In this document: piece after piece, positions 13,239 through 58,816 of the stretch | How positions within the stretch are numbered: the first letter of the stretch is position 1 | Layout of the letters: each line of letters begins with the position of its first letter | Assembly (NCBI GenBank): GCA_029237775.1 | Contig: JAQZBR010000003.1 | Location: 24,214-88,213 of the forward strand | Source of the DNA: Bacteroidota bacterium | GTDB taxonomy: Bacteria > Bacteroidota > Bacteroidia > 2-12-FULL-35-15 | Length of the DNA: 64,000 nt | Direction of reading: 5' to 3' | Notes under the pieces: model-generated | The model's database searches: none | The model's input: only the letters and a program-made list of their open reading frames with translations | What the model was told of the DNA's origin: nothing | Made by a program: the position numbers and the translations under genes

Positions 13239-13255
13239 AGGTATGGTTTTTTTAT
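13239..13255 (+). promoter_or_regulatory. GGYRY-N5-TT box (sigma54-like)
   Basis: AGGTATGGTTTTTTTAT; second G is 25 nt before ATG 13266. Confidence 0.45.
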
Positions 13256-13265
13256 TTCATCTTAT

Positions 13266-13937
13266 ATGAAAACAATAGATAAAAAGAAACAACGCGAGAA
13301 GGGCAAGAAAAAATTCCTTCATTACTTCAAGAAAGGTTATCCTGATCAGAAATATTACGCATGGGAGCGGGGATACAAGTGGGAAGCCCACTTGGCATGG
13401 GAGGAGCAATTAAATAAGAAAGAATTTAAAAGGCTGCTGGAGGAAAAGAACTACAGGGAAATTGCAAACCGTGCAGTTAAGATCGAAACAAAGACCAATT
13501 TGCTTTTTTCATTTGAGAAGATGGCTCTTCGTGACGGTGTGAAATCTGAAGCAGGCGCAAAAGCTTTCGCAGAAGGATTATACAATTACGTGTATGGAAA
13601 AGGGGATATGAAAAAGCGATTCGAAGCTTTTACAGAAGTTCTTGCTAATCTCCCTCGAAAGCAAACCCGCGTATTAACATGGCCTTTACAGACGGTCTTC
13701 GGGTTTATTGCAGATCCCGAACATCAGATCTTCATGAAGCCGAAGGTGACTAAAACTGCTGCAGAAAAATATGGCTATGAATTAAATTATACTTCAAGGC
13801 CAAATTGGGAGACCTATCAGAATTTAATAAATTTTGCGGAGCAGATTCATAAGGATACAAAGGAGTTGAATCCAAAGGACATGATCGATCTACAGTCTTT
13901 TATTTGGGTGATGGGTTCGGATGAATATCCTGACTAG
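13266..13937 (+). CDS. Hypothetical cytoplasmic protein
   Basis: 223-aa ORF from ATG 13266 with protein-like composition (WERGYKW, TWPLQT, DMIDLQSFIWV). Confidence 0.8.
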   Translation: MKTIDKKKQREKGKKKFLHYFKKGYPDQKYYAWERGYKWEAHLAWEEQLNKKEFKRLLEEKNYREIANRAVKIETKTNLLFSFEKMALRDGVKSEAGAKAFAEGLYNYVYGKGDMKKRFEAFTEVLANLPRKQTRVLTWPLQTVFGFIADPEHQIFMKPKVTKTAAEKYGYELNYTSRPNWETYQNLINFAEQIHKDTKELNPKDMIDLQSFIWVMGSDEYPD

Positions 13938-13993
13938 TGGAAAATTAAATTCAATTCCGAACGTACATCAAAACTTGAATCTGAAATTTCAAA

Positions 13994-14257
13994 TCATTTT
14001 TTCTTATACTTTATACTAAAGATAAGATTCAGGATGTTTATGATGAGGGAAAAAACATTCGTTCCTATAATTGCCCAATCATCTTTTATGATTCCATACC
14101 AGATCCATAAGCATAATCCGCTGAAAAGAATAAAAAGCATTGGCAACGAAATATCATCCGCCTTTTTTTCTTTGATGATCTTTATAAGTTGAGGCAGCAT
14201 GGAGACAGAGGTGCAAACACCAGCTGCAATTCCTATGATTGTGGGATTAATGGACAT
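13994..14257 (-). CDS. SemiSWEET / PQ-loop transporter
   Basis: 87 aa, three TMs; MLPQLIK PQ motif, DIS and LWIWYG. Confidence 0.92.
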   Translation of the reverse strand: MSINPTIIGIAAGVCTSVSMLPQLIKIIKEKKADDISLPMLFILFSGLCLWIWYGIIKDDWAIIGTNVFSLIINILNLIFSIKYKKK

Positions 14258-14267
14258 ATCTCGTGTG

Positions 14268-14284
14268 TTAAAAGAATCGTACCA
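14268..14284 (-). promoter_or_regulatory. GGYRY-N5-TT box (sigma54-like)
   Basis: Minus strand TGGTACGATTCTTTTAA; second G is 25 nt before ATG 14257. Confidence 0.5.
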
Positions 14285-14344
14285 CCGTAATCTTTTGCTT
14301 GACCGTCATCGTCAACTAAGTTGTTGAATGATAGTAAAATTATT

Positions 14345-14455
14345 CTTGCGAAGCAGCGCGTAAGGCCTGAAAGCGTACGGTGCCGTGTAGCCTTGCGGGA
14401 AGCGAGTATGCTTTCTTGAATTTTTGTTTCTTTTGTTTCAAGACAAAAGAAAAGA
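14345..14455. repeat. Probable dispersed non-coding repeat element
   Basis: GC-richer block ending in the hairpin TTTCTTTTGT-TTCAAG-ACAAAAGAAA (14427-14452). Resembles, from memory, Bacteroidota intergenic elements; single copy in this window. Confidence 0.45.
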
Positions 14456-14479
14456 ATCCTGAATAAATTTCCCAATTGA

Positions 14480-14496
14480 TGGCACATAAATTTCAT
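14480..14496 (+). promoter_or_regulatory. GGYRY-N5-TT box with a canonical TGGCAC -24 element
   Basis: TGGCACATAAATTTCAT. Confidence 0.55.
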
Positions 14497-14506
14497 GGAT
14501 ATCCGC

Positions 14507-14596
14507 AAGAGATATTCATACAGCCATATCGCCAGAGATGTGATACGGGCAAGGAAATACAAATCTCAAAAAGACTTCCTTTAGAAGTCTTTTTTT
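14507..14596 (+). ncRNA. Candidate ~90-nt small RNA or attenuated leader
   Basis: Lies between the sigma54-like box and an intrinsic terminator; internal hairpin CCATATCGC/GTGATACGG. Confidence 0.3.
14568..14596 (+). terminator. Intrinsic terminator
   Basis: AAAAAGACTTC-CTTTA-GAAGTCTTTTTTT. Confidence 0.75.
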
Positions 14597-14618
14597 ATGC
14601 AAAATAATTTATCGGATC

Positions 14619-15428
14619 ATGCTTGACAGTTTTTTAAAAACATTTAACCTTTCCCTGAATACACTTATTGCTTATATGCCTTCACTGATTGGCGGTTTAG
14701 CTTGCTTTGTGATTTCCATCTTTATTGCTAATTTTTTGTCAAAGATCTCAAACGGCTTTGCTCTTAAAAAGACAAAAGACGGCTTGATTGCGAGCTTTAT
14801 CGGTAAGATAGTCTGGTCGGTTATCTTTATTCTTGGGACTGTTTTAGCCTTGGGCATTCTCGGCCTCGGCACTATCTCCAATAAAATCCTTGCAGGTGCA
14901 GGAATAACCACGTTTATTGTCGGGTTTGCTTTAAAGGATATCGGGGAAAATTTTCTTTCGGGATTAATACTTGCTTTCAGCCGCCCGTATAAAGTCGGGA
15001 CTCTCATAGAATGCGAAGATGTGAAAGGTGTTGTAAGGAACATGACCCTTCGTCAGACGACCATTGAAGCCGATGACGGGAAGATTATTCTCGTTCCTAA
15101 TTCTATGATCATTAAAAATCCGTTGCTGCGTTATAAAACCGCGGATAATCTGCGTCAGGAATTTCATCTCAATATTGATCAGAAAAATTCAAGAGAGATA
15201 ATTGATCTGATAAAGACTACTGTGCATTCGTTTGACAATGTATTGCAAACACCGGAAAAGCCGGTTAAGGTAGTCGCAGGTTCTCTTAGCGGTGATAAGA
15301 TAAATGTGCAGGTGATATTTTGGTTCGACACAAAAAAATTTAAGGGCTCGTTCTCGGAAACTCGATCTGAGATCATGCTTACCGTAATTGAAAAACTCCG
15401 TGAAAGAGAATATACTTTCAGCGGCTAG
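14619..15428 (+). CDS. Small-conductance mechanosensitive channel (MscS family)
   Basis: GFALKDIGENFLSGL, RPYKVG and VPNS motifs. Confidence 0.92.
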   Translation: MLDSFLKTFNLSLNTLIAYMPSLIGGLACFVISIFIANFLSKISNGFALKKTKDGLIASFIGKIVWSVIFILGTVLALGILGLGTISNKILAGAGITTFIVGFALKDIGENFLSGLILAFSRPYKVGTLIECEDVKGVVRNMTLRQTTIEADDGKIILVPNSMIIKNPLLRYKTADNLRQEFHLNIDQKNSREIIDLIKTTVHSFDNVLQTPEKPVKVVAGSLSGDKINVQVIFWFDTKKFKGSFSETRSEIMLTVIEKLREREYTFSG

Positions 15429-15445
15429 TGGCATATAATTTACAT
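15429..15445 (+). promoter_or_regulatory. GGYRY-N5-TT box (sigma54-like)
   Basis: TGGCATATAATTTACAT upstream of the 15519-wrbA unit. Confidence 0.5.
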
Positions 15446-15518
15446 TCTTTATGATACCTTCTTTAAGCACGGTTAAAGGGTTTTAAAGAATTAATACTAA
15501 CAATTAATCTTATCGAAA

Positions 15519-15851
15519 ATGAAAGATCCGAAAAACACAAATGAAAATAATGATTCTGTAAATAAAGATCAGGATCCTGATAAAATAGATATGGTACCGG
15601 GTACTAGCGCTGATGTAACAAAAGAAGACCTGGAGGCACTTGGTCCGAGAGACCTGAGCATGGACATGGGTGATGATGAAGATCTGAAGCATCGTGTGCA
15701 TCCTGTGGATTTTGCAGGAAAAGACCTGGATGTTCCGGGATCTGAGCTTGATGATGCACAAGAGGCAAGAGGTTCCGAAGATGAAGAAAACAATCCATAC
15801 AGTATCGGTGGAGATAACCATGACAAGCTGGAGGAAACAAATAACATTTAG
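15519..15851 (+). CDS. Highly acidic, probably disordered small protein
   Basis: 110 aa, D/E/N-rich (DLDVPGSELDDAQEARGSEDEENNPYSIGGD); 9 nt upstream of wrbA. Confidence 0.8.
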   Translation: MKDPKNTNENNDSVNKDQDPDKIDMVPGTSADVTKEDLEALGPRDLSMDMGDDEDLKHRVHPVDFAGKDLDVPGSELDDAQEARGSEDEENNPYSIGGDNHDKLEETNNI

Positions 15852-15860
15852 ATTTAATTT

Positions 15861-16475
15861 ATGGAAAAGATAAAGCTTGCAGTGATCTATTATAGTTCAA
15901 CCGGAACAAACTATCAGCTTTCTAAGTGGGCTGCAGAAAGCGCAGAAAAGGAAGGCGCGGAAGTGAAGATATTAAAAGTGAAGGAGTTGGCACCGCAGGA
16001 AGCGATAGATTCTAATCCGTTGTGGAAGGCGAATATTGAAAAGACCAAGGATATTGCTGAGGTGAAGGTGGAGGATCTTGACTGGGCGGATGCGATTATT
16101 TTTTCGATGCCTACAAGATATGGTAACCTGCCTGCTCAGATGAAACAGTTCCTGGACTCAACCGGAGGCTTGTGGCAAAAAGGTAAGCTTACCAACAAGG
16201 TTGTCAGTGGAATGTCGAGTGCAATGAACTCCCATGGTGGACAGGAAATGACAATTCTTGCTTTATATACAACCATGTATCACTGGGGTGCAATTGTAGT
16301 AGCACCGGGTTACACTGACCCTGTGCTTTTTGCAGCAGGCGGTAACCCATATGGGACAAGCGTATCAGTTGATGCACAAGGCAAAATGAAGGAGGATGTG
16401 AAAGATGCAGTGATGCATCAGGCAAAGAGAGTTGTTAGTGTTGCAGCTATGCTAAAAAAAGGAAAATCTATATAG
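15861..16475 (+). CDS. wrbA: NAD(P)H:quinone oxidoreductase, WrbA type
   Basis: IYYSSTG, PTRYGN, HGGQE and GGNPYG flavodoxin-like motifs. Confidence 0.93.
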   Translation: MEKIKLAVIYYSSTGTNYQLSKWAAESAEKEGAEVKILKVKELAPQEAIDSNPLWKANIEKTKDIAEVKVEDLDWADAIIFSMPTRYGNLPAQMKQFLDSTGGLWQKGKLTNKVVSGMSSAMNSHGGQEMTILALYTTMYHWGAIVVAPGYTDPVLFAAGGNPYGTSVSVDAQGKMKEDVKDAVMHQAKRVVSVAAMLKKGKSI

Positions 16476-16528
16476 GCAAATGTCAGCAGTGACAATAGGC
16501 GATACTATTATGCTCTGGTACGAATAAT

Positions 16529-16556
16529 AAAAAAAGCCGCAAACGCGGCTTTTTTT
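16529..16556. terminator. Bidirectional intrinsic terminator
   Basis: AAAAAAAGCCGC-AAAC-GCGGCTTTTTTT between convergent genes. Confidence 0.9.
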
Positions 16557-16788
16557 ATTGAGCAGTATCCGTAACCGGATCTTTATCTTTTATTCCATCC
16601 GTCCTTGTATTGTCGGGAGGTGTGTCGATTGTCGAGTCAGCCGTAGCACTCGCAGCATGATTTTCCACTTTCGGATTATTACATCCTGCAAACAGGGCGA
16701 CAAATCCAATGATCATGATTGCCCACGACAACATCATTTTTAAAAGCAGGGTTTCCATAGTTTTGTTTTTTGGTTTCACTTCTTTCAT
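16555..16788 (-). CDS. Small putative lipoprotein
   Basis: Hydrophobic stretch ending in the lipobox FAGC, then a polar D/T-rich tail. Confidence 0.65.
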   Translation of the reverse strand: MKEVKPKNKTMETLLLKMMLSWAIMIIGFVALFAGCNNPKVENHAASATADSTIDTPPDNTRTDGIKDKDPVTDTAQ

Positions 16789-16809
16789 GGCTTATAAGGT
16801 ATTATACTT

Positions 16810-16826
16810 AGTCAAAGCTTATACCA
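16810..16826 (-). promoter_or_regulatory. GGYRY-N5-TT box (sigma54-like)
   Basis: Minus strand TGGTATAAGCTTTGACT. Confidence 0.55.
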
Positions 16827-16868
16827 CCCGAAAACTGAAATTTAAGTGGGGAAGCATTACCGCGAAAT

Positions 16869-17837
16869 TTACTTTTTTGACTTTTTCGTTTTGCTCTTTT
16901 TCGCTTTTGATTTTTTTGCGGCAGGTTTGTCTTTAAGTTTAGTTTTCCCTTTAACAATCACTGTTGTATGTCTTTCAGCTTTAATATCTTGTTTAGAAGG
17001 AAGGAATTCCCTTTCTTTCAATGCATAACCGTTACGTTTAGAAAGTATATGAACCCTTAGGTTTTCAATACACAATGGCACATCGGGCGCTGCGTATGCA
17101 ATATTTGTATGGCCTACATCCTTCCCATCAATTATTACCACCATTCCGGATCCTTTGCATTCAGCTCTGTTTCCTTTTTTAATTACAAGGGCGGTGTCTT
17201 CTCCGAGTCCGATCCCAATACAAGCCGGGTTCATTACTATTGATTGTGCAAGTCTTCCAAATCTTCCGCGCTTAATAAAATGGGTGTCAATAATACAGCC
17301 GTGTATAAACCCGAGTCCGGAGGAGAACTTTACTGTCTGACTCAGCATTGCTTCGTTGTTTTCTCCTTCATACAACATTAAGCCTGACATGGCCATCGCT
17401 CCCGCACTGGTGCCCGCTACAATAAAATCGGAATCATGCACGTATTTATGTTTTACGGCATCTATCACATCTGAACTCCCTAAAATTGTCGCAAGCCTGA
17501 ATTGATCTCCGCCACTGAAAAGTACAGAGTGCGCTTTATGGATGCGTTCTACATATTTAGGATAATCAGCCTCTTCATGATTGCTCATATTTATAAAGCC
17601 AACCTCTTTGAAGCCGATTTTCTTAAAGGCTTCCTTATACATCTCATTGACTTCTTTTGGAACTGAAGAAGCGGTGGTAATGATCTCAATTTTCTTTTTA
17701 TTTCTTTTTTTGTCTTTAGGCAGTAATTCGGATAGGATCTCAAACTCTTCATATTCTCTGTTCCTGGTCAAGGCTCTTCCGTCACCTTTATCTTCTGCTC
17801 CCCCTATCAGGATCAATGTTCCTTTTGGCACTTTCAT
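16869..17837 (-). CDS. cphB: Cyanophycinase (peptidase S51) with a Lys-rich C-terminal tail
   Basis: IGGAEDK, FSGGDQ, GTSAGA (Ser), IDTHFIKRGRFGRL (His) and GLGEDT (Glu); ATGA overlap with the upstream cphA paralog. Confidence 0.95.
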   Translation of the reverse strand: MKVPKGTLILIGGAEDKGDGRALTRNREYEEFEILSELLPKDKKRNKKKIEIITTASSVPKEVNEMYKEAFKKIGFKEVGFINMSNHEEADYPKYVERIHKAHSVLFSGGDQFRLATILGSSDVIDAVKHKYVHDSDFIVAGTSAGAMAMSGLMLYEGENNEAMLSQTVKFSSGLGFIHGCIIDTHFIKRGRFGRLAQSIVMNPACIGIGLGEDTALVIKKGNRAECKGSGMVVIIDGKDVGHTNIAYAAPDVPLCIENLRVHILSKRNGYALKEREFLPSKQDIKAERHTTVIVKGKTKLKDKPAAKKSKAKKSKTKKSKK

Positions 17838-20407
17838 ATATTAATAGTTTTATTTTGTTCCTTCTCCTGTTTCTCAGTTACAAAGCTTATGATTTCATGC
17901 ACTTTGTCGGCACAGGCAAGAATGACTGAACCTCTTTTTGCAGCAGCTATTGCATGCTCTATAGCCTTTTTTTCATCTGCGATTATCTCTACCTGCATCG
18001 AAGGACATTCTTCTTTTATACCTTCCATTAAAAGATTGGAATGCTCCTCAGCAGGACGGCCTCGTAAATCTTTATCGTAACGGATTATTATTTTGTCGAA
18101 CATCTGTGCGGCATATTTGCCAAGACAGCGTATGTCATCATCTCTACGGTCGCCTGTGGCCGCAATGATTCCTACCTTTTCAGAGGCTTCGGTTTTATCA
18201 AGGAATTTCTTTAATTCCATATAGCCGCTTTTATTGTGTGCATAGTCAATGATGAAATCGAAATCATTGAACTTAAATACATTTAATCTGCCGGGAGTTT
18301 TCTCAGGCGATGGGACGAATGACAACAATCCGTTTCGTACCGATTCCGGATCAAACTTGTTAATGATCATCACCGCAAGCGATGCTGCAAGAATATTCTG
18401 GATCATAAATTCAGCTTTACCGTCAAAGCTTAGAGGAATATTGGCGATTTTGTCGATTCGTGTTTTCCACTCACCGTTGTAAATTGTAAGATACTCCTCC
18501 TCAATAACTGCAGCAACTCCGCCATTCTCACAATGTGTCCTCACGCGTTCATTATTTTCATTCAGACTGAAGAGTGCGATCTTGCAGTTAGTGAATTGTT
18601 GCATATTATAGACGAGATCATCATCAGCATTCAGGATGGCATATCCGTCCTTCTTTGTAGCTTTCGCCACCACAAGCTTAACCTTAGAGAGTTCTTCAAG
18701 CGTTTCTATGTCTTTTGTTCCGAGGTGATCATCGGAAACATTTGTAACTATACTGATATCGCACTGGTCAAATCCCAATCCCGATCTTATAATTCCTCCC
18801 CTGGCACATTCAAGCACTGCCATGTCGATAGTTGGGTCGAAAAGCACGGTCTGCGCGCTAACGGATCCGGTGCAATCACCTTCTTCAATTAAATGATTAT
18901 TGATATAGATACCTTCTGTGGTAGTATATCCGACAGTATGGCCAGCCTCTTTAAGGATGTGTGCCGTCAGTCGTGTGGTAGTTGTCTTACCGTTAGTGCC
19001 TGTTACAGCAATTAACGGAATGCGCGTGTCATTATCAGGAAAAAGCATATCGATTATCGGCTTTGCGACATTGCGCGGAATCCCGATAGTGGGATTGGTA
19101 TGCATTCTGATTCCCGGCCCTGCATTCACTTCAATGATAGCTCCGGTCTTTTTCGTTAAAGGCTGGCTTACATCAGTTGTTAATATATCTATTCCACAAA
19201 TGTTAAGGTTGAAAAGCTTAGCGATATGTTCAGCCATAAAAACATTTTCGGGATGAACAATGTCTGTTACGTCTGTAGATGTCCCGCCTGCGCTGATGTT
19301 CGCTATTTCCTTTAAATATAGATTTTGGCCTTCATGCAAAACACTTTCAAGGGTAAGGGATTTGGAGGCAAGTATTTTCTTTGTTACATCATCCGCTTTG
19401 ATTAGTGCGAGCGGATGTTCCTGAGAGGAGCCGCGGTCAGGATGCTGGTTTTCTTTTTCAATAAGCTCAGCGATAGTAGACTTGCCATCACCTGTAACAT
19501 TGGCCGGAGTGCGTTTAGCGACTGCAACAAGTTTATAGTTGATCACCAGAAAACGATGATCGTCTCCTTTTATAAATTCTTCCACTATTACGGCACGTGA
19601 GATCTTTTGAGCGACCTCGAGGCCATGGATAGCCTTTTCGATCGAATTTATTTCCGTTGTTACGCCACGCCCGTGATTTCCATCAAGAGGTTTTGTAACA
19701 AGAGGGAATTGCATGTTCTTTATTTCTTCAAGTAATTCTTCTTTATCATAAACTATGACGCCTTTCGGCACGGGAAGCTTTGAATCTTCCAACATTTTCT
19801 TGGTTTCCTCTTTATCTCCGGCAAGTTCAATGCCGATACCACTGGTAGAGTCAACAAGTGCCGTCCTCATTTTCTTTTGCTTGCGGCCATATCCAAGCGT
19901 TATCAGAGAACCATTATCAAATCGTTTGTACGGAATATTTCGGCTGATCGCTTCGTTCAAAATGAATGAAGTGGTGGCTCCCATGTCTTCATCACTTCTT
20001 ATGTCCTCAAGCTCTTCAATGAATTTATGTATATCCGGAGATTGTTTCTGAACAAGGGATTCCACGATCTTCACGGCCGAGGCCGCTGCAAACTTGCCTG
20101 CATCTTCAAATTCGTAAGAAAATATGATGCGAAAAATTTCGGGTTGTCGTGTTGTTAATACCGCGCCATACTCCGCGTGCATTCCTGCTTTTCTTTGAAG
20201 TTCGAGAGCAATGGTTTTTACTGCTTCGGCAATTTCATTCGCTGTGGATAATGAAGGGTGTGCATCAGGGAATATCCGTAGCACTTCAGACTGTAATTCC
20301 GAAGCTTCTGCATTCCCGACATTTAATTTAAATACAATAAGTTTCGAATGCTGGTCAGCCCATTGATTGGGTCCGCGCATTACTTTCAATTCTATGATCT
20401 CAAACAT
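17834..20407 (-). CDS. cphA: Cyanophycin synthetase paralog with a degenerate N domain
   Basis: RGPNxW start; ATP-grasp motifs KPLDGNHGRG, DHRFLV and EVNAGPGIRMH; Mur-ligase motifs TGTNGKTTT, ECARGG, DHLG and DYAHN; no Cx19HxxEH. Confidence 0.9.
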   Translation of the reverse strand: MFEIIELKVMRGPNQWADQHSKLIVFKLNVGNAEASELQSEVLRIFPDAHPSLSTANEIAEAVKTIALELQRKAGMHAEYGAVLTTRQPEIFRIIFSYEFEDAGKFAAASAVKIVESLVQKQSPDIHKFIEELEDIRSDEDMGATTSFILNEAISRNIPYKRFDNGSLITLGYGRKQKKMRTALVDSTSGIGIELAGDKEETKKMLEDSKLPVPKGVIVYDKEELLEEIKNMQFPLVTKPLDGNHGRGVTTEINSIEKAIHGLEVAQKISRAVIVEEFIKGDDHRFLVINYKLVAVAKRTPANVTGDGKSTIAELIEKENQHPDRGSSQEHPLALIKADDVTKKILASKSLTLESVLHEGQNLYLKEIANISAGGTSTDVTDIVHPENVFMAEHIAKLFNLNICGIDILTTDVSQPLTKKTGAIIEVNAGPGIRMHTNPTIGIPRNVAKPIIDMLFPDNDTRIPLIAVTGTNGKTTTTRLTAHILKEAGHTVGYTTTEGIYINNHLIEEGDCTGSVSAQTVLFDPTIDMAVLECARGGIIRSGLGFDQCDISIVTNVSDDHLGTKDIETLEELSKVKLVVAKATKKDGYAILNADDDLVYNMQQFTNCKIALFSLNENNERVRTHCENGGVAAVIEEEYLTIYNGEWKTRIDKIANIPLSFDGKAEFMIQNILAASLAVMIINKFDPESVRNGLLSFVPSPEKTPGRLNVFKFNDFDFIIDYAHNKSGYMELKKFLDKTEASEKVGIIAATGDRRDDDIRCLGKYAAQMFDKIIIRYDKDLRGRPAEEHSNLLMEGIKEECPSMQVEIIADEKKAIEHAIAAAKRGSVILACADKVHEIISFVTEKQEKEQNKTINI

Positions 20408-20430
20408 AAATAACCCTCTTATTCGTTAGG

Positions 20431-20461
20431 AAAAAACGGGAGCAAATTTTGTTTGCTCCCG
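20431..20461 (-). terminator. Intrinsic terminator between the ferritin-like gene and the cphA paralog
   Basis: 10-bp stem CGGGAGCAAA/TTTGCTCCCG followed by six U on the minus strand. Confidence 0.75.
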
Positions 20462-20469
20462 GGAAAGAT

Positions 20470-21060
20470 TTACTTTTTCTTTGCAGCTTTTTTAGCCTTT
20501 TTCGGTGATTCTTCATCCTCCTCTTCAGAGGCTGCCTGCATATTAATGGTGGCTTCTGCCACTTCTGTTAGTTTTTCATCTGCAGCTTTCTCCTGATCTA
20601 ATATTTCTCCAAGCAACGTTGCAGCATCATTCAAACCCAAAGTTTTAGCAAATTGGCGAAGTGTTCCATAGCTGGCAATTTCATAATGCTCAACCTTCTG
20701 TCCCGCAGAAATGATTCCTGCGTCACGCATCGCTCCTGCATCTGCTTCTTTCATGATTTCTTCAGCTTCTTTTACCAGTCCGGCCATTGCTTCACATTTT
20801 TTTGCGGTTGCTTTTTTACCGATCACTTTGAATACCTGCTCAAGCTTTTCGATCTGGCCTTCCGTTTCTTCCAGGTGATTCTCCAGGGCTGTGATCAGAT
20901 CTTCATTTGTAGCTTTCTTGGCCATTTTAGGAAGAGCTTTTGTCAATGCTTTTTCAGCCCAATAGATATCTTTTAATTCGTCTTCGAATAATTTCATGAG
21001 TTTTGATTCTTCGATGCCATATTCTGCAGACGCTTTTTTGCTTGTTGATTTTGATTTCAT
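20470..21060 (-). CDS. YciE/YciF (DUF892) ferritin-like stress protein with Lys-rich termini
   Basis: LKDIYWAEK, HLEETEGQ, KCEAMAGL and QKVEHYEIASYGTL motifs. Confidence 0.93.
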   Translation of the reverse strand: MKSKSTSKKASAEYGIEESKLMKLFEDELKDIYWAEKALTKALPKMAKKATNEDLITALENHLEETEGQIEKLEQVFKVIGKKATAKKCEAMAGLVKEAEEIMKEADAGAMRDAGIISAGQKVEHYEIASYGTLRQFAKTLGLNDAATLLGEILDQEKAADEKLTEVAEATINMQAASEEEDEESPKKAKKAAKKK

Positions 21061-21091
21061 ATGAATGTTTTTAGGGTTTGTGCTTAGCTAT

Positions 21092-21108
21092 ATTAAAAGA
21101 ATATGCCT
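21092..21108 (-). promoter_or_regulatory. GGYRY-N5-TT box (sigma54-like)
   Basis: Minus strand AGGCATATTCTTTTAAT. Confidence 0.55.
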
Positions 21109-21230
21109 TTTCATTAAATGACAGCTAATTTCCGAACTGTGAAAAAAAATACACAAATAGCCTGTTTCACTCTTAATTTAATTAGCATGTTTCTTGACAG
21201 AAGTTTACTTACTTTTAGATCTTAAAATTT

Positions 21231-22178
21231 ATGACTAAGGAAATGAAAAGGCATGCGATAGCAATACACGGAGGAGCCGGTACCATCACAAGAAACATAT
21301 TAACAAACGATCTGGAGCTGGCCTACAGGGGAGCTTTACAGGAAGCTATTGAAATGGGAGACAGAATTCTTGCAAAGGGAGGAAACGCCCTCGAAGCTGT
21401 CACCGCCAGCGTAGCGCTAATGGAGGAAAATGAATTATTTAATGCAGGAAAAGGTTCAGTGTTTAATCATGAGGGGAAACACGAGATGGATGCAGCCGTT
21501 ATGGATGGTAAAACCTTAATGGCAGGTGCTGTTTCCGGTATTCGTAATTTGAAGCACCCTGTTTTATTGGCTAAAGCGATTATGGAGAAGTCAGACCATG
21601 TTCTATTGGCTAATTCAGGAGCTGCAGACTTCGCCAGGGAAATGAATCTTGAATTTGCTCCGGATGATTATTTTTTCGTTCAGCATCGTTACGAACAATT
21701 TTTGGCTGCCAGGGCTGAAGGGCATGTTGTTCTGGATCACACTCAGCCCGGAGACGAGAAGAAATTCGGAACCGTAGGTGCTGTAGCTTTGGATGTTCAT
21801 GGTAATATTGCTGCCGCGACCTCAACGGGTGGTATGACCAATAAAAAATGGGGGAGGGTAGGTGATTCACCTATCATTGGAGCCGGAACATACGCTAACA
21901 ATAATACCTGCGCTATTTCCTGTACCGGACACGGGGAATACTTTATCAGATCAGTAGTAGCGTACGATATTTCATGTCTTATGGAATACAAAGGACTCAG
22001 CCTCAAAGAAGCCTGTGACCTTGTAGTGATGAAAAAGCTTGTTGAAATTGGCGGAGAAGGCGGATTGATAGCGATAGATACTATGGGTAATATTGAAATG
22101 CCTTTTAATTCTGAAGGAATGTATCGCGCGGTGAAGCATTCAGAACAGGATTATTTTATCGGTATCTATAAGGACTAA
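21231..22178 (+). CDS. iaaA: Isoaspartyl peptidase/L-asparaginase (Ntn hydrolase)
   Basis: IHGGAG, FNAGKG, EMDA, G-TVGAVA Thr nucleophile, TSTGG, GRVGDSP and TGHGE motifs. Confidence 0.95.
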   Translation: MTKEMKRHAIAIHGGAGTITRNILTNDLELAYRGALQEAIEMGDRILAKGGNALEAVTASVALMEENELFNAGKGSVFNHEGKHEMDAAVMDGKTLMAGAVSGIRNLKHPVLLAKAIMEKSDHVLLANSGAADFAREMNLEFAPDDYFFVQHRYEQFLAARAEGHVVLDHTQPGDEKKFGTVGAVALDVHGNIAAATSTGGMTNKKWGRVGDSPIIGAGTYANNNTCAISCTGHGEYFIRSVVAYDISCLMEYKGLSLKEACDLVVMKKLVEIGGEGGLIAIDTMGNIEMPFNSEGMYRAVKHSEQDYFIGIYKD

Positions 22179-22198
22179 GCCTCAACTATATTCAAAAT

Positions 22199-22233
22199 AA
22201 AAACGCCTCTTCGGTTTTCGAAGAGGCGTTTTT
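22199..22233. terminator. Bidirectional intrinsic terminator
   Basis: AAAAACGCCTCTTCG-GTTTT-CGAAGAGGCGTTTTT. Confidence 0.9.
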
Positions 22234-22249
22234 GTATGTTTAGTATTTA

Positions 22250-24898
22250 TCAGGATACTTTTGATAAAGGGAAAAGCTGGTTTCCGGATTTCTCATTTTC
22301 TTCTTTTAATTGCTTAACAAATGCAATACTTTTCTTTACATCTTCTGTACAAAGGAAAATAAAGCTTCCGTTAACGGCATTCTGCATAGATGTTAATAAT
22401 GCTTCCTGTTCGTTTGGAACCACAATAACAGGAATTGAACTGTTCACACTGTTGATTCCTTCCATAAGCAAAGCGGTAAGCTCATCGCAGTTTCTTCCAC
22501 GCAGGTCATCATCGTGACGGATGATAATATTCGTAAACATTTGCGCGGCATAGTAGCCGATATTGCGGATATCTTCATTTCTTCTATCGCCAACTGCAGT
22601 GATAATGCCTGTTTTTACCGGTGCATTGATGCTGTCCACAAACTTCTTCAATTCAACAAAACCTCCTGCATTGTGAGCGTAATCAACCATTACATCAAAA
22701 TTGCTGAATTTGAAATTATTCATGCGGCCAGGAGTATGCTCCGGTGAAGGAACAAATGAAAGCAAGGCGGCACGGATATCTTCCAGTTTGAAATTGCTGG
22801 CCATTCCTGCAAGCGTTGCTGCCAGAATGTTTTTAATCATTGCAGTTGCTTTACCCTGGAACGACAATGGTACATTCTCAATTCTGCAAACTCTTGTCTG
22901 CCATTCACCTTTGGTGATTGTCAGGTATCCTTTTTCGATTGTAGCTGCCATTCCACCGCGTTTGCAGTGACGAATGATGCGCTCATTATTTTCTTCAATG
23001 CTGAAAAGTGCTATGTTACAGTCAATGTCATATCTCAGATCATAAACCAGATCATCGTCTGCATTTAAAATGCTGAAACCATCATCAAATGTGCTTCTTG
23101 CCACAACCGCTTTCACTTTTGCCATCTCTTCAACATCGTCAATGCCATTTAAGCCAAGATGATCTTCGGAAATGTTGGTGATGATGCTCACATTGCAATT
23201 GTCGAAACCTAATCCTGCTCTTAAAATTCCACCACGAGCACATTCAAGGACTGCAAAATCAACAGTAGGATCTGTTAGAATCGCTTCTGCACTAACAGGG
23301 CCAGTGCAATCGCCATAGTGAACTGCGTGACCGTTAATATAAATTCCATCAGTTGTTGTAAATCCTGTTCTGAATCCCGCCTGTTTAGCCATGTGAGCAA
23401 CAAGCCTTGTTGTTGTTGTTTTTCCATTGGTTCCTGTTACGGCAACAATCGGGATCCGTGAAGGCTTTCCTTCCGGATATAACATACTCATCACAGGTTC
23501 TGCAACGTTTCTTGCTAAGCCTTTCGCAGGATTAAGGTGCATACGGAATCCCGGACATGCATTCACTTCAACTATCCCTCCAATTTCGTTTGTGATAGGT
23601 TGGTCTATATCCTTTGCCACAACATCGATCCCACAAATATCAAGGTTCATTATACGTGCGATCCTCTCGGCCATTAAAACATTGGCAGGGTGGACAAGAT
23701 CAGTTACATCGCGGGATGTTCCACCTGTGCTGATATTCGCTGTGTCTTTTAATAAAAGGATCTGTCCCATCGGAAGAATAGTGCTGAGAGTAAATCCCTT
23801 ATCATTTAAAATATTATTCGTGGTCTCATCCACAACGATCTTTGTCATTACTTTCTCATGTCCGTCTCCCCGGTTCGGATCATTGTTGGTCTGCTCTATA
23901 AGTTCAGCTATAGTGGAGAGGCCATCTCCCATAACCATTGCGGGTGTGCGTTTTGCCACTGCAACCAGTTTGTAATTGATAACAAGGAAGCGATAATCAT
24001 AACCTTCTATAAACCGTTCAACGATCACACTTTCGGAAATGGTTTTTGCTATGTGAAACGCTGCGATTGCCTGTTCAATATTTCTGATATTGGTCGTAAT
24101 ACCTCTACCGTGGTTGCCGTCAATAGGTTTAATCACAACAGGGAAGCTCATTTCCTGAAGTACATCGCGAAGTTCTTCTTCATCGCTGATCACTTCTCCG
24201 GTAGGTACCGGGATATATGCTTTTTTAAGAATTTTTTTTGTTTCGTCTTTATCACCCGCCAGATCAACTCCGATTGAAGCTGTATCAGAGGTCATAGAGG
24301 CACGGATCTTTTTCTGGTGAACACCCTGTCCGAAAAGGATCATTGATCCGCTGTTAAGTCGTTTGTATGGAATATTCCGTTTTTTAGCTTCGTTGATGAT
24401 AGACTGCGTGCTCGGGCCAAATGCTTCACGCTTATGAATTCTTCTTAAGCGGTCAAGGTCTGCATCCAGATCGTATGGTGTGCCATTAGCTAATGCGTCA
24501 CAGATTCTGATCGCTGCTTCAGCTGCGTATACCCCGGCCTTTTCAATCTCGTAGGAAAAGATCACATGATAGATCCCCGATTGTCCTGCCGAACGTGTGC
24601 GGCCGTAGCCCACTTCCATACCTGCAAGGGTTTGAATTTCCAGTGCGATATGTTCAACAACATGTCCCATCCATGTTCCGCTTTTGATCCGTTCGAAGAA
24701 TCCTCCTTCGTGGCCTTCGGAGCATCTGTGTTCAAACATGCTTGGAAACATTTCTTTGAGACGTTCACCAAAACCGGGGATTTTATTTGTAGGGAGCTGT
24801 TCGTACTTGCCGATATCCAGCTTCATGATAATCACATGTTGGCGGTAATTGGACCAATAGTTGGGTCCACGCATAATACTGAGGTCGAGAATATTCAT
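22250..24898 (-). CDS. cphA: Cyanophycin synthetase CphA1, canonical
   Basis: RGPNYWS; intact C-x19-HVVEH and YGRTR; GPST, KPIDGNHGRG, ANISTGG, TGTNGKTTT and DYAHN motifs; start taken at ATG 24898. Confidence 0.96.
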   Translation of the reverse strand: MNILDLSIMRGPNYWSNYRQHVIIMKLDIGKYEQLPTNKIPGFGERLKEMFPSMFEHRCSEGHEGGFFERIKSGTWMGHVVEHIALEIQTLAGMEVGYGRTRSAGQSGIYHVIFSYEIEKAGVYAAEAAIRICDALANGTPYDLDADLDRLRRIHKREAFGPSTQSIINEAKKRNIPYKRLNSGSMILFGQGVHQKKIRASMTSDTASIGVDLAGDKDETKKILKKAYIPVPTGEVISDEEELRDVLQEMSFPVVIKPIDGNHGRGITTNIRNIEQAIAAFHIAKTISESVIVERFIEGYDYRFLVINYKLVAVAKRTPAMVMGDGLSTIAELIEQTNNDPNRGDGHEKVMTKIVVDETTNNILNDKGFTLSTILPMGQILLLKDTANISTGGTSRDVTDLVHPANVLMAERIARIMNLDICGIDVVAKDIDQPITNEIGGIVEVNACPGFRMHLNPAKGLARNVAEPVMSMLYPEGKPSRIPIVAVTGTNGKTTTTRLVAHMAKQAGFRTGFTTTDGIYINGHAVHYGDCTGPVSAEAILTDPTVDFAVLECARGGILRAGLGFDNCNVSIITNISEDHLGLNGIDDVEEMAKVKAVVARSTFDDGFSILNADDDLVYDLRYDIDCNIALFSIEENNERIIRHCKRGGMAATIEKGYLTITKGEWQTRVCRIENVPLSFQGKATAMIKNILAATLAGMASNFKLEDIRAALLSFVPSPEHTPGRMNNFKFSNFDVMVDYAHNAGGFVELKKFVDSINAPVKTGIITAVGDRRNEDIRNIGYYAAQMFTNIIIRHDDDLRGRNCDELTALLMEGINSVNSSIPVIVVPNEQEALLTSMQNAVNGSFIFLCTEDVKKSIAFVKQLKEENEKSGNQLFPLSKVS

Positions 24899-24925
24899 AA
24901 GGGCATTTTTAGTTTGACCTGTTTT

Positions 24926-24942
24926 CAAGAAAAACTATGCCA
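24926..24942 (-). promoter_or_regulatory. GGYRY-N5-TT box (sigma54-like)
   Basis: Minus strand TGGCATAGTTTTTCTTG. Confidence 0.55.
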
Positions 24943-25058
24943 TAAACAAACAGCCTGAGAATCAAGGCGGAGGACTGGAATTCAATAAAAAAGTGGGGAA
25001 AATATACCACCCTAACCGGATGGATAACGCGGGAAAACCCCTATTTATGGGGCAAAAC

Positions 25059-25090
25059 AAAAACGCTCCCGGATTACGGAAGCGTCTTCT
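25059..25090 (-). terminator. Terminator downstream of efp
   Basis: Imperfect stem ACGCTCCCG/CGGAAGCGT with a U-tract on the minus strand. Confidence 0.6.
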
Positions 25091-25109
25091 TTGCTAAATA
25101 AGGATGTTA

Positions 25110-25670
25110 TTATTTTACGCGTTCAACATAAGAGTTTGTGCGTGTGTCAATCTTAATTTTCTCCCCTTCGTTCACAAATAAAGGAACGTTTACAACAGCT
25201 CCTGTTTCAAGGGTCGCAGGTTTTAAAGTGTTAGTTGCGGTATCACCTTTAACACCAGGCTCTGCATATGTTATAGTAAGCTCCACAAATGTAGGTGCCT
25301 CAGCAAGAATTGGCTCATCTCCTTCAAAAGACACTTTTACTTCCATACCTTCTTTAAGGAATTTAATGCTATCTCCTAAAAGAAATGCCGGTAAATGGAT
25401 CTGCTCAAATGTGTCATTATCCATGAGCACGATAAACTCGCCTTCAGGATAAATGAACTGCATCTGTTTGTAATCAACGCGAACCACTTCGACAGCTTCT
25501 CCCGCCCTGAAACGGTTTTCCACGATCTTGCCGTTCTTTAAATTACGCATACGTGCCTGGTAGAAGGCGCGAAGGTTTCCCGGTGTGCGGTGCTGGTATT
25601 CTTCTATTCTGCAAAGCTCACCGTTAAAGCGGATCACTGAACCTACGTTGATATCTCCTGAATTTGCCAT
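25110..25670 (-). CDS. efp: Translation elongation factor P
   Basis: HRTPGNLRAF loop, EPGVKGDTA, KPATLETG and VPLFV motifs; start taken at ATG 25670. Confidence 0.96.
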   Translation of the reverse strand: MANSGDINVGSVIRFNGELCRIEEYQHRTPGNLRAFYQARMRNLKNGKIVENRFRAGEAVEVVRVDYKQMQFIYPEGEFIVLMDNDTFEQIHLPAFLLGDSIKFLKEGMEVKVSFEGDEPILAEAPTFVELTITYAEPGVKGDTATNTLKPATLETGAVVNVPLFVNEGEKIKIDTRTNSYVERVK

Positions 25671-25890
25671 TTGATGATATGTTTTTGTAAAAGAGTTTAG
25701 AAATTGGTCTGCAAAGATATGATTTATGGCTTTACCTGCAAATCGTGACTTAACTGTTTTCACAACGGAGAAACGGAGTGCAGGGAGAGGTAAGAGTGAG
25801 GCTGATCGACCTGGTGTTACATTCAAATCGCCTTAAAATAAAAAATCCCCTGCTTTCGCAGAGGACTTTCTATTAAATTGAAATATATAA

Positions 25891-26082
25891 CTAAGCTAGT
25901 TTTACATTTACTGCATTTAATCCTTTTTTACCTTCTTGTACTTCGTAAGTAACGGTATCATTTTCTCTGATTTCGTCAACCAGACCTGATACGTGTACAA
26001 AAATTTCTTTTCCTGTTTGTTCGTCTTTAACAAATCCAAAACCTTTTGTGTTGTTAAAGAACTTTACTGTTCCTGTGTTCAT
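25891..26082 (-). CDS. Cold-shock protein
   Basis: GTVKFFN, RNP1 KGFGFV and RNP2 IFVHVS; terminator-like hairpin at about 25840-25870. Confidence 0.95.
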   Translation of the reverse strand: MNTGTVKFFNNTKGFGFVKDEQTGKEIFVHVSGLVDEIRENDTVTYEVQEGKKGLNAVNVKLA

Positions 26083-26227
26083 TTTTTATTATGTATTAAA
26101 TTAATTTCAACAAAGATACGGTTAATATTTCTTAAAAACCGATTTAAAAGATAAATTATTTCTAATTGCCATATTATCAGTGCTTTCTGACTTTTAAAAA
26201 AATCCATTGGCTGATTCCAAGGAGCGT

Positions 26228-26452
26228 CTAAAGATCTACGATGTACCATTTACCTTCATCATTAATCGCATAGGTAAGCCCATCATTCATTTCATGGACC
26301 TCTCTGCCATGTTCCTTGCTGAAATAGCTTTTCTTCTCATAAATCCGGATCCCTCCGTTTTCTTTGGTTAGATAATGTACTAACGCGGTCATTGTTGGCT
26401 GAATGTCATGCAACCACTGATCGTCTCCTTCTTTTACAAATGCCTGGCTCAT
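26228..26452 (-). CDS. Small hypothetical protein (MSxAFVKE N-terminus)
   Basis: 74-aa ORF with protein-like composition and its own upstream GGYRY-N5-TT box. Confidence 0.7.
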   Translation of the reverse strand: MSQAFVKEGDDQWLHDIQPTMTALVHYLTKENGGIRIYEKKSYFSKEHGREVHEMNDGLTYAINDEGKWYIVDL

Positions 26453-26475
26453 AATAATTGCTTTTATATTATAAT

Positions 26476-26492
26476 TCTAAAATTATACGCCA
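26476..26492 (-). promoter_or_regulatory. GGYRY-N5-TT box (sigma54-like)
   Basis: Minus strand TGGCGTATAATTTTAGA. Confidence 0.5.
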
Positions 26493-26708
26493 TTGCATCT
26501 ATTATAATAATGTTCACAGGAAGCCACAAATTTCCCAATTCATTCACGATTCGTTCTCAATTCGCACTTAAATTCCCCAATTCCCCAGTTTTATTGAAAG
26601 CCGTTCGTATTTTTCCGAACATGTTTTCTGTCCATTCGGCATTCAGAATTACTTTTTTGAATCAATTAAATCTTCACTCGCCTTTTCTGACCTGCTTTTT
26701 AGCCCAAA

Positions 26709-26725
26709 AGGCATTGCATTTTCAA
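26709..26725 (+). promoter_or_regulatory. GGYRY-N5-TT box (sigma54-like)
   Basis: AGGCATTGCATTTTCAA upstream of ATG 26760. Confidence 0.45.
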
Positions 26726-26759: not shown

Positions 26760-27086
26760 ATGAAAAAATTCATATTTATAACATCATTGATACTAGGTTT
26801 ATCAGGATTCGTAACAGCACAAACAGCATCACACCTTGGAAGAGAAAAAGAATCAATGTTCAAAGGGAAAATAAAAGTGAGAAAGCAGGTTCACCATTTC
26901 GAAAAACAAAAAAGAGATAAAGCCATCGCTCATAATGGAACTTCGGTAAGAAGAGAGCAGGTAGAAAACAGCCGAAGAAAGGTTGATGGCAACGGTTTCG
27001 CAAGCACTAAATATTTTCCGTCAGATAAAAGAAAGAAAGCGAAAAAAGTGAGAAACAAAAACTTCAACACTTATACAATGAAGTAA
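26760..27086 (+). CDS. Small secreted, highly basic protein
   Basis: Sec signal MKKFIFITSLILGLSGFVTA-Q; K/R-rich mature part. Confidence 0.75.
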   Translation: MKKFIFITSLILGLSGFVTAQTASHLGREKESMFKGKIKVRKQVHHFEKQKRDKAIAHNGTSVRREQVENSRRKVDGNGFASTKYFPSDKRKKAKKVRNKNFNTYTMK

Positions 27087-32617: not shown

Positions 32618-32743
32618 TCCTGCAAATATAACAAACTGTTTAGATCTGGTTTTAATGCAAAAATAATGTCAAATAATTTTGTTTTTATATCGGTCAAACG
32701 TATTTAAAAGCTATAACTTTAGAAAAAAATTAAAGCAAATTTT

Positions 32744-58783: not shown

Positions 58784-58816
58784 GGTCAATGTTTATACCA
58801 AAAAACCTTTGTGCCA
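58784..58816 (-). promoter_or_regulatory. Two stacked GGYRY-N5-TT boxes upstream of the rhomboid gene
   Basis: Minus strand TGGCACAAAGGTTTT then TGGTATAAACATTGA. Confidence 0.45.

Follow-up and report, generated by a model that had tools for sequence, protein, structure and literature searches.

A predicted sigma-54-type promoter class with an altered -12 element, and its link to a second RpoN and to stress and cyanophycin genes in an uncultured Bacteroidia lineage

One of the sigma-54 systems closest to the one considered here comes from Flavobacterium psychrophilum, where a motif with "typical -24/-12 elements" (SM4) was reported before groES, lon, dnaK and grpE; the species has a single sigma-54 and three PF00158 proteins (PMC9723704, as excerpted). 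A cross-phylum survey found chaperone genes enriched among the predicted sigma-54 targets of Bacteroidota, and more than one rpoN in about 5% of the surveyed organisms (PMC12316311, as excerpted). In Cereibacter (Rhodobacter) sphaeroides, there are four RpoN paralogues that are not interchangeable, each with its own bacterial enhancer-binding protein (bEBP), and a base of the -12 region, at position -11, governs which promoters are used (excerpted text of PMC11999139, citing Poggio 2002, 2006 for the paralogues). The DNA analysed here, called the window, is a stretch of 64,000 nucleotides (nt) from a Bacteroidota bacterium (assembly GCA_029237775.1, contig JAQZBR010000003.1, positions 24,214 to 88,213). 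A sequence-only reading of the window had flagged nine boxes of the form GGYRY-N5-TT before stress and cyanophycin genes, and had proposed that a variant of RpoN with relaxed recognition of the -12 element, or another factor, drives them. The follow-up led to a refined box, class S (cTGGCAT-N5-TTTTA), and to a second sigma-54, RpoN2, as its probable reader. To our knowledge, no general-stress sigma factor has been established for Bacteroidota, and sigma-54 has so far been linked there to chaperone and envelope genes.

The genome under study (G000, 4.08 Mb) has 3290 genes by our own gene calling, with 2610 upstream regions, and 9.3% of its DNA is intergenic. Within the upstream regions, GGCAT-Nn-TTT occurs 63 times forward and 23 times in reverse for n=4, and 57 and 27 times for n=5, as against 9-19 forward and 8-11 reverse for n=7-13. 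The whole genome holds 378 matches to GGCAT-N4/5-TTT, of which 111 are intergenic (29%, vs the 9.3% share of intergenic DNA), and 84 of these 111 face a gene within 250 nt, with the distance from the GG to the start peaking at 30-60 nt. Iterative matrix refinement gave the class S consensus. Its -24 block has GG at 97-99%, C at 84%, A at 97% and T or C at 97% (positions 0-4), with T at 68% at -1; its -12 block has TT at 99% at +10/+11, followed by T (69%), A (23%) or G (5%) at +12 and A (59%) or C (23%) at +13. An A-rich patch (53-74%) is found at +25 to +28, where the start site of a sigma-54 promoter would lie.

Of the 66 matches scoring above 16 in the genome, 51 are promoter-oriented, 3 are elsewhere in intergenic DNA and 12 are in coding sequence; the same counts are 86, 9 and 58 above 14, and 134, 21 and 170 above 12. 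Because the matrix had been trained on the regions that it scored, it was retrained on half of the contigs, and the held-out halves gave 39/4/34 and 34/6/23 above 14, in the same order. Among the 85 genes preceded by a box that scores above 14, the called start lies a median of 58 nt from the GG. The Bacteroidota housekeeping box TAnnTTTG, placed at -7 and itself enriched in this genome (840 forward vs 451 reverse), lies within about 120 nt of the start in 10 of 78 class S genes and in 655 of 2026 others (Fisher p=1.6e-4), in keeping with the contrast first drawn between housekeeping and boxed genes. The refined motif is a genuine class of predicted promoters, dependent on spacing, facing genes, and kept both in held-out contigs and before orthologues. 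A reading of the box as a shifted TAnnTTTG was also considered and rejected, there being no TA at +6/+7 and only 5% G at +13.

The nine flagged boxes were all found again at the given coordinates and on their strands, each 5' of an open reading frame (ORF) and facing it. The TAnnTTTG boxes named as housekeeping examples, four in number, are likewise present, to within 1 nt. The loose pattern proved not to be enriched in the window, which has 56 matches to GGYRY-N5-TT, vs a mean of 58.9 (standard deviation 8.5) in dinucleotide shuffles, 61 of 100 of which reach 56. In the upstream regions of the whole genome, the forward and reverse counts are 262/174 for N5, 260/181 for N4 and 222/172 for N6, so that forward matches outnumber reverse ones by no more than about 1.5-fold and N5 is not favoured over N4 or N6. 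Within the loose pattern, GGCAT-N4/5-TTT is strongly non-random. Nor can the nine be kept as one class, since five score well on the refined matrix, the box at 16825 belongs to another class (class H, below) and three are weak. The -12 element is not relaxed but defined, TTT(T/A)A, and the GGTAT variants show no enrichment on their own (GGTAT-N5-TTT, 21 forward and 23 reverse). In terms of local clustering, 7 of 11 consecutive upstream regions contain a box by our gene calls, vs 249 of 2610 genome-wide, the highest single window of the genome and a count reached in 46 of 2000 label permutations. In the favoured explanation, nowhere else in the genome would class S promoters lie so densely as at this locus.

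That the -24 element and the spacing are of the sigma-54 type was borne out by the refined box, which has T-GG-CA-Y and TT exactly 8 nt after the GG. Its GG and TT take the places of the -24 GG and the -12 TT in TGGCAC-N5-TTGC, and T and A stand where the -12 G and C would be. The GC at -12 that marks sigma-54 promoters is therefore missing from class S; exact TGGCAC-N5-TTGC was found in none of the 2610 upstream regions. A second class of boxes, class H (TGGYA-N6-TTGA), has the same geometry as class S and retains the G. It stands before dnaK, grpE, lon, htpG, lemA, a rhomboid gene and others, and the groES box reads TGGTAC-N5-ATGA. The grpE box, TGGCA-N6-TTG, was found in 27 of 29 loci from several families, in 5/5 genomes with RpoN2 and 22/24 without it. 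Class S differs from class H chiefly by T for G at +12. Class H is therefore read as the ordinary sigma-54 regulon of the phylum, in agreement with the F. psychrophilum motif and the cross-phylum survey (PMC9723704 and PMC12316311, both as excerpted). A further element, TGTC-N4/5-TGTC, lies 26-27 nt upstream of the grpE GG in 19 of the 29 loci (within ATGTCAAAATGTCTTATTATCTTTG at C6:110817-110843 of G000), where the heat-shock activator may bind.

The proposal of an RpoN variant as reader gained support from the genome, which has two complete sigma-54 genes (PF04552), both with the activator-interacting, core-binding and DNA-binding domains above Pfam cut-offs. RpoN1, on contig C3, has orthologues in 38 of 41 relatives at 49-92% identity. 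RpoN2 (C6:176825-178270) is 36% identical to RpoN1, matches PF00309, PF04963 and PF04552 with 31.6, 160.7 and 165.8 bits, and aligns end to end with solved enterobacterial sigma-54 chains (E=5e-61). Its orthologues, at 65% identity or more, are present in 5 of the 41 relatives, and across the class it occurs in 5 of 301 genomes (E<=1e-110), four of this genus and one of another family. A scan of species-representative genomes added 16 loci in metagenome-assembled genomes (MAGs), with an RpoN2 of 55-90% identity. In an alignment of 20 RpoN1 and 19 RpoN2 sequences, fixed differences between the paralogues were found in Region I, in the helix of the helix-turn-helix (HTH) that reads the -12 element (STISRVANSKY in RpoN1 vs STvSRITSNKh in RpoN2) and in the RpoN box (ARRTIAKYR vs ARRTVVKYR).

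The class S boxes track this paralogue in related genomes, of which G002, G004, G017 and G023 have RpoN2, as does G000; the congeners G003 and G019 lack it and have RpoN1 and a class H grpE box. In the 200 nt upstream of ferritin orthologues, the best class S scores are 18.7 in G000, 13.5 in G004 and 19.3 in G017, vs 9.3 or less at 19/19 loci of genomes without RpoN2; the locus of G023 was dropped, its contig starting at the gene. For DUF4142 genes, the score is at least 12 in 8 of 11 entries from genomes with RpoN2, and at most 5.1 in 5/5 from genomes without it. The density of boxes scoring above 12 was also compared, with one pipeline for all genomes. Stretches of 400 kb from G003 and 283 kb from G019 have no promoter-oriented matches (34 matches in all, 33 of them coding, and 29 in all, 28 coding, respectively), that is, none in the 683 kb sampled from congeners without RpoN2. 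By comparison, 263 kb of G002 has five promoter-oriented among six intergenic matches, 400 kb of G017 four of four, and the 4.08 Mb of G000 has 134. The 16 MAG loci, 193 kb of DNA flanking rpoN2, hold 30 matches above 13, of which 28 have an ORF within 300 nt downstream, and 13 of the 16 loci have at least one. In G000 itself, rpoN2 is preceded by YtxH-like, holin-X-like and unknown genes behind a class S box (12.6), with eight further intergenic boxes above 11 in the surrounding 20 kb, and in one MAG a class S box lies 50 nt before rpoN2.

Some features of these loci and genomes can be noted in their own right. The ferritin/Dps-like gene (C12:68398-68995) has retained TAnnTTTG in 21 of 22 genomes, and in G000, G004 and G017 the extra class S box lies about 25-30 nt upstream of it, a dual-promoter arrangement. 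Since the housekeeping box was kept in so many loci, the class S box appears as an added upstream promoter. Several genomes without RpoN2 have the palindrome GAAAAGCTTTTTC in its place. The G+C content of the sampled stretches varies widely for one genus (G003 31.7%, G019 34.9%, G002 37.0%, G000 40.2% and G017 47.6%), as do the genome sizes, from 2.5 to 5.5 Mb, with the RpoN2-bearing members among the larger.

A sigma-54 promoter system calls for a sigma-54 and at least one bEBP in the organism, and G000 has three strong PF00158 genes beside its two PF04552 genes. The congeners G003 and G019, which lack RpoN2, have two bEBPs each, while G004, G017 and G002 have the same two types and a third (open frames of 512-525 amino acids, aa). 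The extra type, about 490-525 aa long, is on the rpoN2 contig at a distance of 8-29 kb in G000, G004, G017 and G002, and in one MAG locus (L086) it follows rpoN2 by about 0.5 kb, with 73% identity. In G000 this protein, EBP3 (C6:150047-151516), has a receiver domain (PF00072), an AAA+ domain (PF00158, 221 bits) with a GSFTGA loop and a Fis-type HTH (PF02954), and so has the receiver, the AAA+ domain with a GAFTGA-type loop and the Fis-type HTH of an NtrC-type bEBP. Its stop overlaps the start of a hybrid kinase gene with REC-PAS-HisKA-HATPase domains, and a PAS kinase gene lies divergently. The two widely conserved bEBP genes (C3:127617-128858 and C6:116547-117713) are near chaperone genes, one of them 2.4 kb upstream of groES and the other about 5 kb downstream of grpE; the latter has a receiver domain, and a regular expression for the GAFTGA-type loop gave no match in it.

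About 85-130 genes are predicted to make up the class S regulon, with roles in stress protection, dormancy and nitrogen storage, in line with the proposed tie between RpoS/SigB-like stress genes and cyanophycin genes. Pfam annotation covered the first gene behind the 40 best boxes, the window genes, the EBP3 neighbourhood and some neighbours. Protection and storage are represented by YciF/DUF892, ferritin/Dps-like, tandem Usp and two DUF4142 proteins, and the envelope by OmpA with a glycine zipper, OmpA-TPR, a TMEM220-like protein and an M48 peptidase. There are also nucleic-acid functions (RNase R, PhoH-PIN, a bifunctional nuclease with a UVR motif and an SDR-unknown-Ku operon) and enzymes (short-chain dehydrogenases, an esterase and a fatty-acid hydroxylase). 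The signalling products are three receiver-only regulators, a LytTR regulator, a MASE1-PAS kinase, a SpoIIAA-like protein and an extracytoplasmic function (ECF) sigma factor. Others have no link to stress, such as TPR, MORN and RCC1-repeat proteins, two proteins that bear tails for type IX secretion, an acyl carrier protein, and cupin, arginine-deiminase-like and phosphoglucose-isomerase-like proteins, and 12 of the 40 products have no Pfam family. In the window, class S boxes precede the genes for MscS, for an acidic protein with WrbA, for YciF with a cyanophycin synthetase and a cyanophycinase, and for a second cyanophycin synthetase. YciF, WrbA, Dps, Usp, YtxH, OsmY/OmpA-like lipoproteins, MscS and Ku are members of the RpoS, SigB or EcfG stress regulons elsewhere. 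The Ku operon (C6:152975-155049) directly follows the EBP3-kinase pair, behind a class S box (14.5), and end-joining repair would therefore fall within the putative regulon.

From the observed motif statistics, the conservation of the motif, the gene content of the regulon, the two RpoN genes with their conserved differences and the co-occurrence of the boxes with RpoN2 and EBP3, we infer which sigma factor reads the boxes, that an activator is needed and what signal induces the genes. It appears reasonably probable that RpoN2 and the linked activator drive a general-stress and nitrogen-storage regulon through promoters in which the -12 G has become T. RNA polymerase with RpoN2 would bind the class S boxes as a closed complex, which the NtrC-type response regulator EBP3 would open. 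Since EBP3 is predicted to be co-transcribed with the hybrid PAS histidine kinase, a phosphorelay would switch on the regulon of roughly 85-130 genes, and the ancestral RpoN1 would keep the class H promoters of heat-shock and quality-control genes. As a sequence feature, class S together with RpoN2 is well supported; as a mechanism, it is plausible. A broader proposition is that RpoN2 and its NtrC-type partner constitute a sigma-54-based general stress response, in which a duplicated sigma-54 changed its -12 reading from G to T, came to serve, by way of a single two-component activator, about 100 promoters of dormancy, protection and cyanophycin-storage genes, and now acts in one uncultured lineage of the Bacteroidia as RpoS, SigB or EcfG do elsewhere; this is more tentative and falls a little short of an even bet. 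The core of the sequence-only reading, namely a sigma-54-type promoter without the -12 GC, an RpoN variant, and stress and cyanophycin genes, is supported by these genomic patterns.

A number of observations weigh against RpoN2 as the reader, and most bear on the alternative that the ancestral RpoN1 reads class S, alone or interchangeably with its paralogue, with RpoN2 and the third activator merely co-inherited with an expanded regulon. The geometry of class S is that of class H, and the two overlap at +12, where class S has 5% G and 23% A. YciF homologues in G023, which has RpoN2, and in G028, which lacks it, have TTGA-type boxes, so that the two classes may grade into each other. The RpoN2-bearing genomes with the clearest boxes, G000, G004 and G017, are close kin, and the co-occurrence may consequently rest on one or two evolutionary events. 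G002, with an RpoN2 that is 65% identical, is boxless before its ferritin (score -3.8), DUF4142 and YciF genes despite its five promoter-oriented matches elsewhere, and in G168, of another family and with an RpoN2 that is 54% identical, no convincing box was found in 99 kb around the gene, a small sample. Whole-genome counts of YTGGCAY-N4-TTTT against an N8 control did not separate the genomes with and without RpoN2 among 41, a test of low power, given that the N4/N8 counts are 36/14 in G000 and 24/22 and 29/27 in G004 and G017, both demonstrably boxed; a regular-expression version of the density comparison set G000 apart from the controls but was noisy in samples of 260-400 kb. In addition, inspection of the -12-contact region of RpoN, as had been suggested, turned up the fixed HTH differences described above together with a retained residue: RpoN2 still has the HTH-helix Arg by which enterobacterial sigma-54 reads the -13 G, and hence the residue basis of a switch from G to T is not evident. 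Even so, reading by RpoN1 or by both is judged unlikely, as the RpoN2-less congeners with RpoN1 and a class H grpE box have no promoter-oriented boxes in 683 kb, none of the 19 RpoN2-less ferritin loci has a box, MAGs whose RpoN2 is as little as 55% identical still have boxes clustered next to the gene, and conserved positions in the helices that read DNA differ between the paralogues.

The box could instead be the site of some other factor, either a sigma-70-family or ECF sigma with one extended element or a regulator bound at a fixed place before the real promoter. This has in its favour the absence of the defining -12 GC, the ECF sigmas of the genome, one of them behind a box, and a result that counts against RpoN2 as well: shared 6-8-mers between -170 and -4 of 85 boxes revealed no convincing enhancer-like site, the top words being terminator-like or low in count. 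If a single NtrC-type activator served some 100 promoters, a binding site upstream of every one would normally be expected. A bolder extension of the broader RpoN2 proposition is that EBP3 may work without promoter-specific enhancers, given the A/T-rich -12 region and no shared upstream site. Against another factor, T-GG-CA-Y with TT at +10/+11 is exactly the sigma-54 spacing, and a -35/-10 pair needs 16-18 nt between its elements; class S genes mostly lack the TAnnTTTG on which a regulator would act, and of the factors identified, those found together with the box are a sigma-54 paralogue and a sigma-54 activator, and no other. A precedent could be seen in PM2 of Bacteroides thetaiotaomicron, a stationary-phase and oxidative-stress motif without an assigned sigma, but its elements lie at -10 and -30, a different layout (PMC7366714, as excerpted). 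All in all, another factor is quite improbable. It is more improbable still, to the point of being hardly credible, that the nine boxes as a whole arose by chance, as matches to a short pattern rich in A and T within intergenic DNA of like composition. Such a view could draw on the shuffle-level frequency of the loose pattern in the window and its lack of N5 preference genome-wide, on the three of the nine boxes that score below 9 on the refined matrix, and on the balanced strand counts of GGTAT-N5-TTT. The refined motif is nonetheless specific in spacing, orientation and position, boxes are kept before orthologues whose flanks have diverged, and the more AT-rich G003 and G019 have no promoter-oriented matches. 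Chance is contradicted for the five to six strong boxes and may hold for those at 14283 and 26491. RpoN2 with EBP3 thus remains the favoured explanation for class S.

Within the window, boxes were scored with the refined class S matrix, and their conservation was checked in the syntenic loci of G017 and G004. The highest score belongs to GGCATATTCTTTTA (21094..21107, minus strand; 17.3), 47 nt before the start of YciF and with no TAnnTTTG in the 200 nt upstream. Its syntenic copies score 18.2 (G017) and 16.3 (G004), and the box is kept amid diverged flanks before the G017 and G004 orthologues, a second G004 copy and a G000 paralogue on contig C5. It is likely the promoter of a putative operon (16869..21060, minus strand) that consists of the genes for YciF/DUF892 (20470-21060; Pfam DUF892), a cyanophycin synthetase (17834-20407) and a cyanophycinase (16869-17837), separated by a 62-nt gap and then a 4-nt overlap. 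No box scoring above 0 was found before the synthetase or cyanophycinase genes downstream of yciF. The second cyanophycin synthetase paralogue (22250..24898, minus strand) has a translation that closely resembles the first; both synthetases and the cyanophycinase were named by reading the translations, not from Pfam. Its box, GGCATAGTTTTTCT (24928..24941, minus strand; 13.0), is 43 nt before the ATG at 24898, and over 15 nt, GGCATAGTTTTTCTT, the box is identical in G017 and G004, at -48 and -51.

On the plus strand, GGCATATAATTTAC (15430..15443; 14.6) is 89 nt before the gene for a 110-aa acidic protein without a Pfam match, followed after 9 nt by the gene for a WrbA-type flavodoxin-like FMN reductase (15861-16475; Pfam FMN_red/Flavodoxin), the pair spanning 15519..16475; the orthologous boxes score 17.9 (G017) and 15.4 (G004). 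GGCACATAAATTTC (14481..14494, plus strand; 12.8) lies 138 nt before an MscS-type channel gene, whose orthologues are boxed too at variable distance (13.7 at -128 in G004 and 11.0 at -43 in G017). An S-like box, GGTATGGTTTTTTT (13240..13253, plus strand; 14.2), is 26 nt before an ATG at 13266 for a 223-aa protein, a start that is uncertain in that the gene caller prefers 13197, which would place the box inside the gene; the protein has no Pfam family, and no orthologue was found in the fetched G017 and G004 loci. The moderate S-like box GGCATTGCATTTTC (26710..26723, plus strand; 10.6) is 50 nt before the gene for a 108-aa basic protein (26760-27086), for which Pfam gives only a weak lipoprotein-signal match and the fetched G017 and G004 loci no orthologue. 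Outside the range first flagged, the class S-like box GGTATGATTTTT (32372..32385, plus strand; 15.5) is 66 nt before an 89-aa gene (32438-32707).

Two boxes are weak. GGTACGATTCTTTT (14270..14283, minus strand; 8.9) is 26 nt before a PQ-loop/SemiSWEET-like gene (13994-14257; Pfam PQ-loop), and GGTAY with a T-run is present at -26 to -31 in all three genomes (12.6 in G017 and 5.5 in G004). GGCGTATAATTTTA (26478..26491, minus strand; 8.2) is 39 nt before a 74-aa gene (26228-26452), with a GGCRTA core at -32 to -49 in G017 (8.2) and G004 (6.7). Taken on its own, the box at 14283 is doubtful as a promoter, and the same is true of that at 26491. The GG at 14283 and that at 13240 are each 26 nt from the ATG, and transcripts from these two may be leaderless. 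The box at 16825, TGGTATAAGCTTTGAC (16811..16826, minus strand), 37 nt before a 77-aa gene (16555-16788), is of the class H type: it reads TGGTAT-N5-TTGAC, fits GGYA-N6-TTGA and has a class S score of 6.1, and TGGTAT-N5-TTG is retained in G017 (-40) and G004 (-33). Another class H box, GGTATAAACATTGA (58786..58799, minus strand), is 39 nt before a rhomboid-family gene (58023-58760; Pfam Rhomboid). A variant box that had not been flagged, AGCATGTTTCTTGA (21184..21197, plus strand), lies 47 nt before an isoaspartyl peptidase/asparaginase gene (Pfam Asparaginase_2), and each of the three genomes has AGCAY with a T-run between -43 and -48 (7.8, 11.8 and 12.1). AGCA for GGCA also starts some other high-scoring or conserved boxes (C6:206651 and C3:502776), which is unexpected for a sigma-54 -24 element.

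TAnnTTTG was not found before the boxed genes of the locus, and the elongation factor P gene and a 63-aa gene of the same block are boxless in all three genomes. The 63-aa gene (25891-26082, minus strand), perhaps cold-shock-like, has TAnnTTTG at -36 and no sigma-54-type box. Its DNA has several further matches per relative at 73-77% identity, and it would therefore belong to a multi-copy family of small genes. The gap between the PQ-loop and MscS genes contains a stretch of about 110 nt (14337-14460) with many matches in related genomes at 70-95% identity, at least 9 in G017, 14 in G002 and 6 in G004, and so has the appearance of a short repeat scattered over the genomes or of a miniature mobile element. 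To the left of the locus, the translation of 10856-12082 (minus strand) reads as a GAF domain with a PP2C (SpoIIE-type) phosphatase, and a SpoIIAA-like gene stands behind a class S box at C3:361263-361664; together, these hint at a partner-switching module.

If the role of RpoN2 is as proposed, the lineage would offer a natural pair of sigma-54 paralogues with promoters that differ mainly at one base, and thus a system for studying how the -12 element is read and how activators are depended upon. It would also provide a list of stress and dormancy genes, many of them without a family, for an uncultured group, as well as a regulatory link from entry into stress to cyanophycin, a reserve of nitrogen and carbon. 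Predictions of sigma-54 regulons that are built on the TTGC consensus would then miss such promoters altogether. A full-text literature search found no description of a second sigma-54 in Bacteroidota or of a -12 element lacking the G, and none of a sigma-54-driven regulon of the general-stress type that includes cyanophycin metabolism.

Compared with the canonical TGGCAC-N5-TTGC(W), class S shares the T-GG-CA-Y at -24, the TT 8 nt after the GG and the compact layout of two blocks; it differs in the GC at -12, the second defining element, which it has replaced. The sigma-54 regulon for heat shock and envelope stress in Bacteroidota, known from SM4 of F. psychrophilum and the chaperones of B. 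thetaiotaomicron, likewise combines a -24/-12 promoter, stress genes and few activators (PMC9723704 and PMC12316311, as excerpted). Class H has the same target genes as SM4, namely dnaK, grpE and lon, and the two are likened by these targets and by the -24/-12 layout given in the excerpted description. Class S departs from that heat-shock regulon by the T for G at -12, by its general-stress, dormancy and cyanophycin genes, and by its occurrence only where a second sigma-54 is present. PM2 of B. thetaiotaomicron is similar in being a non-housekeeping Bacteroidota motif before oxidative-stress and stationary-phase genes, but it is near-palindromic with elements at -10/-30, as opposed to the -24/-12 layout of class S (PMC7366714, as excerpted). 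With C. sphaeroides, as far as the excerpted account goes, the system has in common specialised sigma-54 paralogues with cognate activators and discrimination in the -12 region. C. sphaeroides, however, is an alphaproteobacterium in which the regulons are those of nif, flagella and a CtrA repressor and the promoters keep the GC, whereas here, in a case known from sequence alone, the proposed discriminating base would be the -12 G itself, at about 100 promoters of stress genes. The general stress regulons of RpoS in Gammaproteobacteria, SigB in Bacillota and EcfG in Alphaproteobacteria overlap with the class S genes in content. Those three are sigma-70-family factors that use no ATP-driven activator, and the candidate for the Bacteroidia lineage is a sigma-54 paralogue with an NtrC-type activator.

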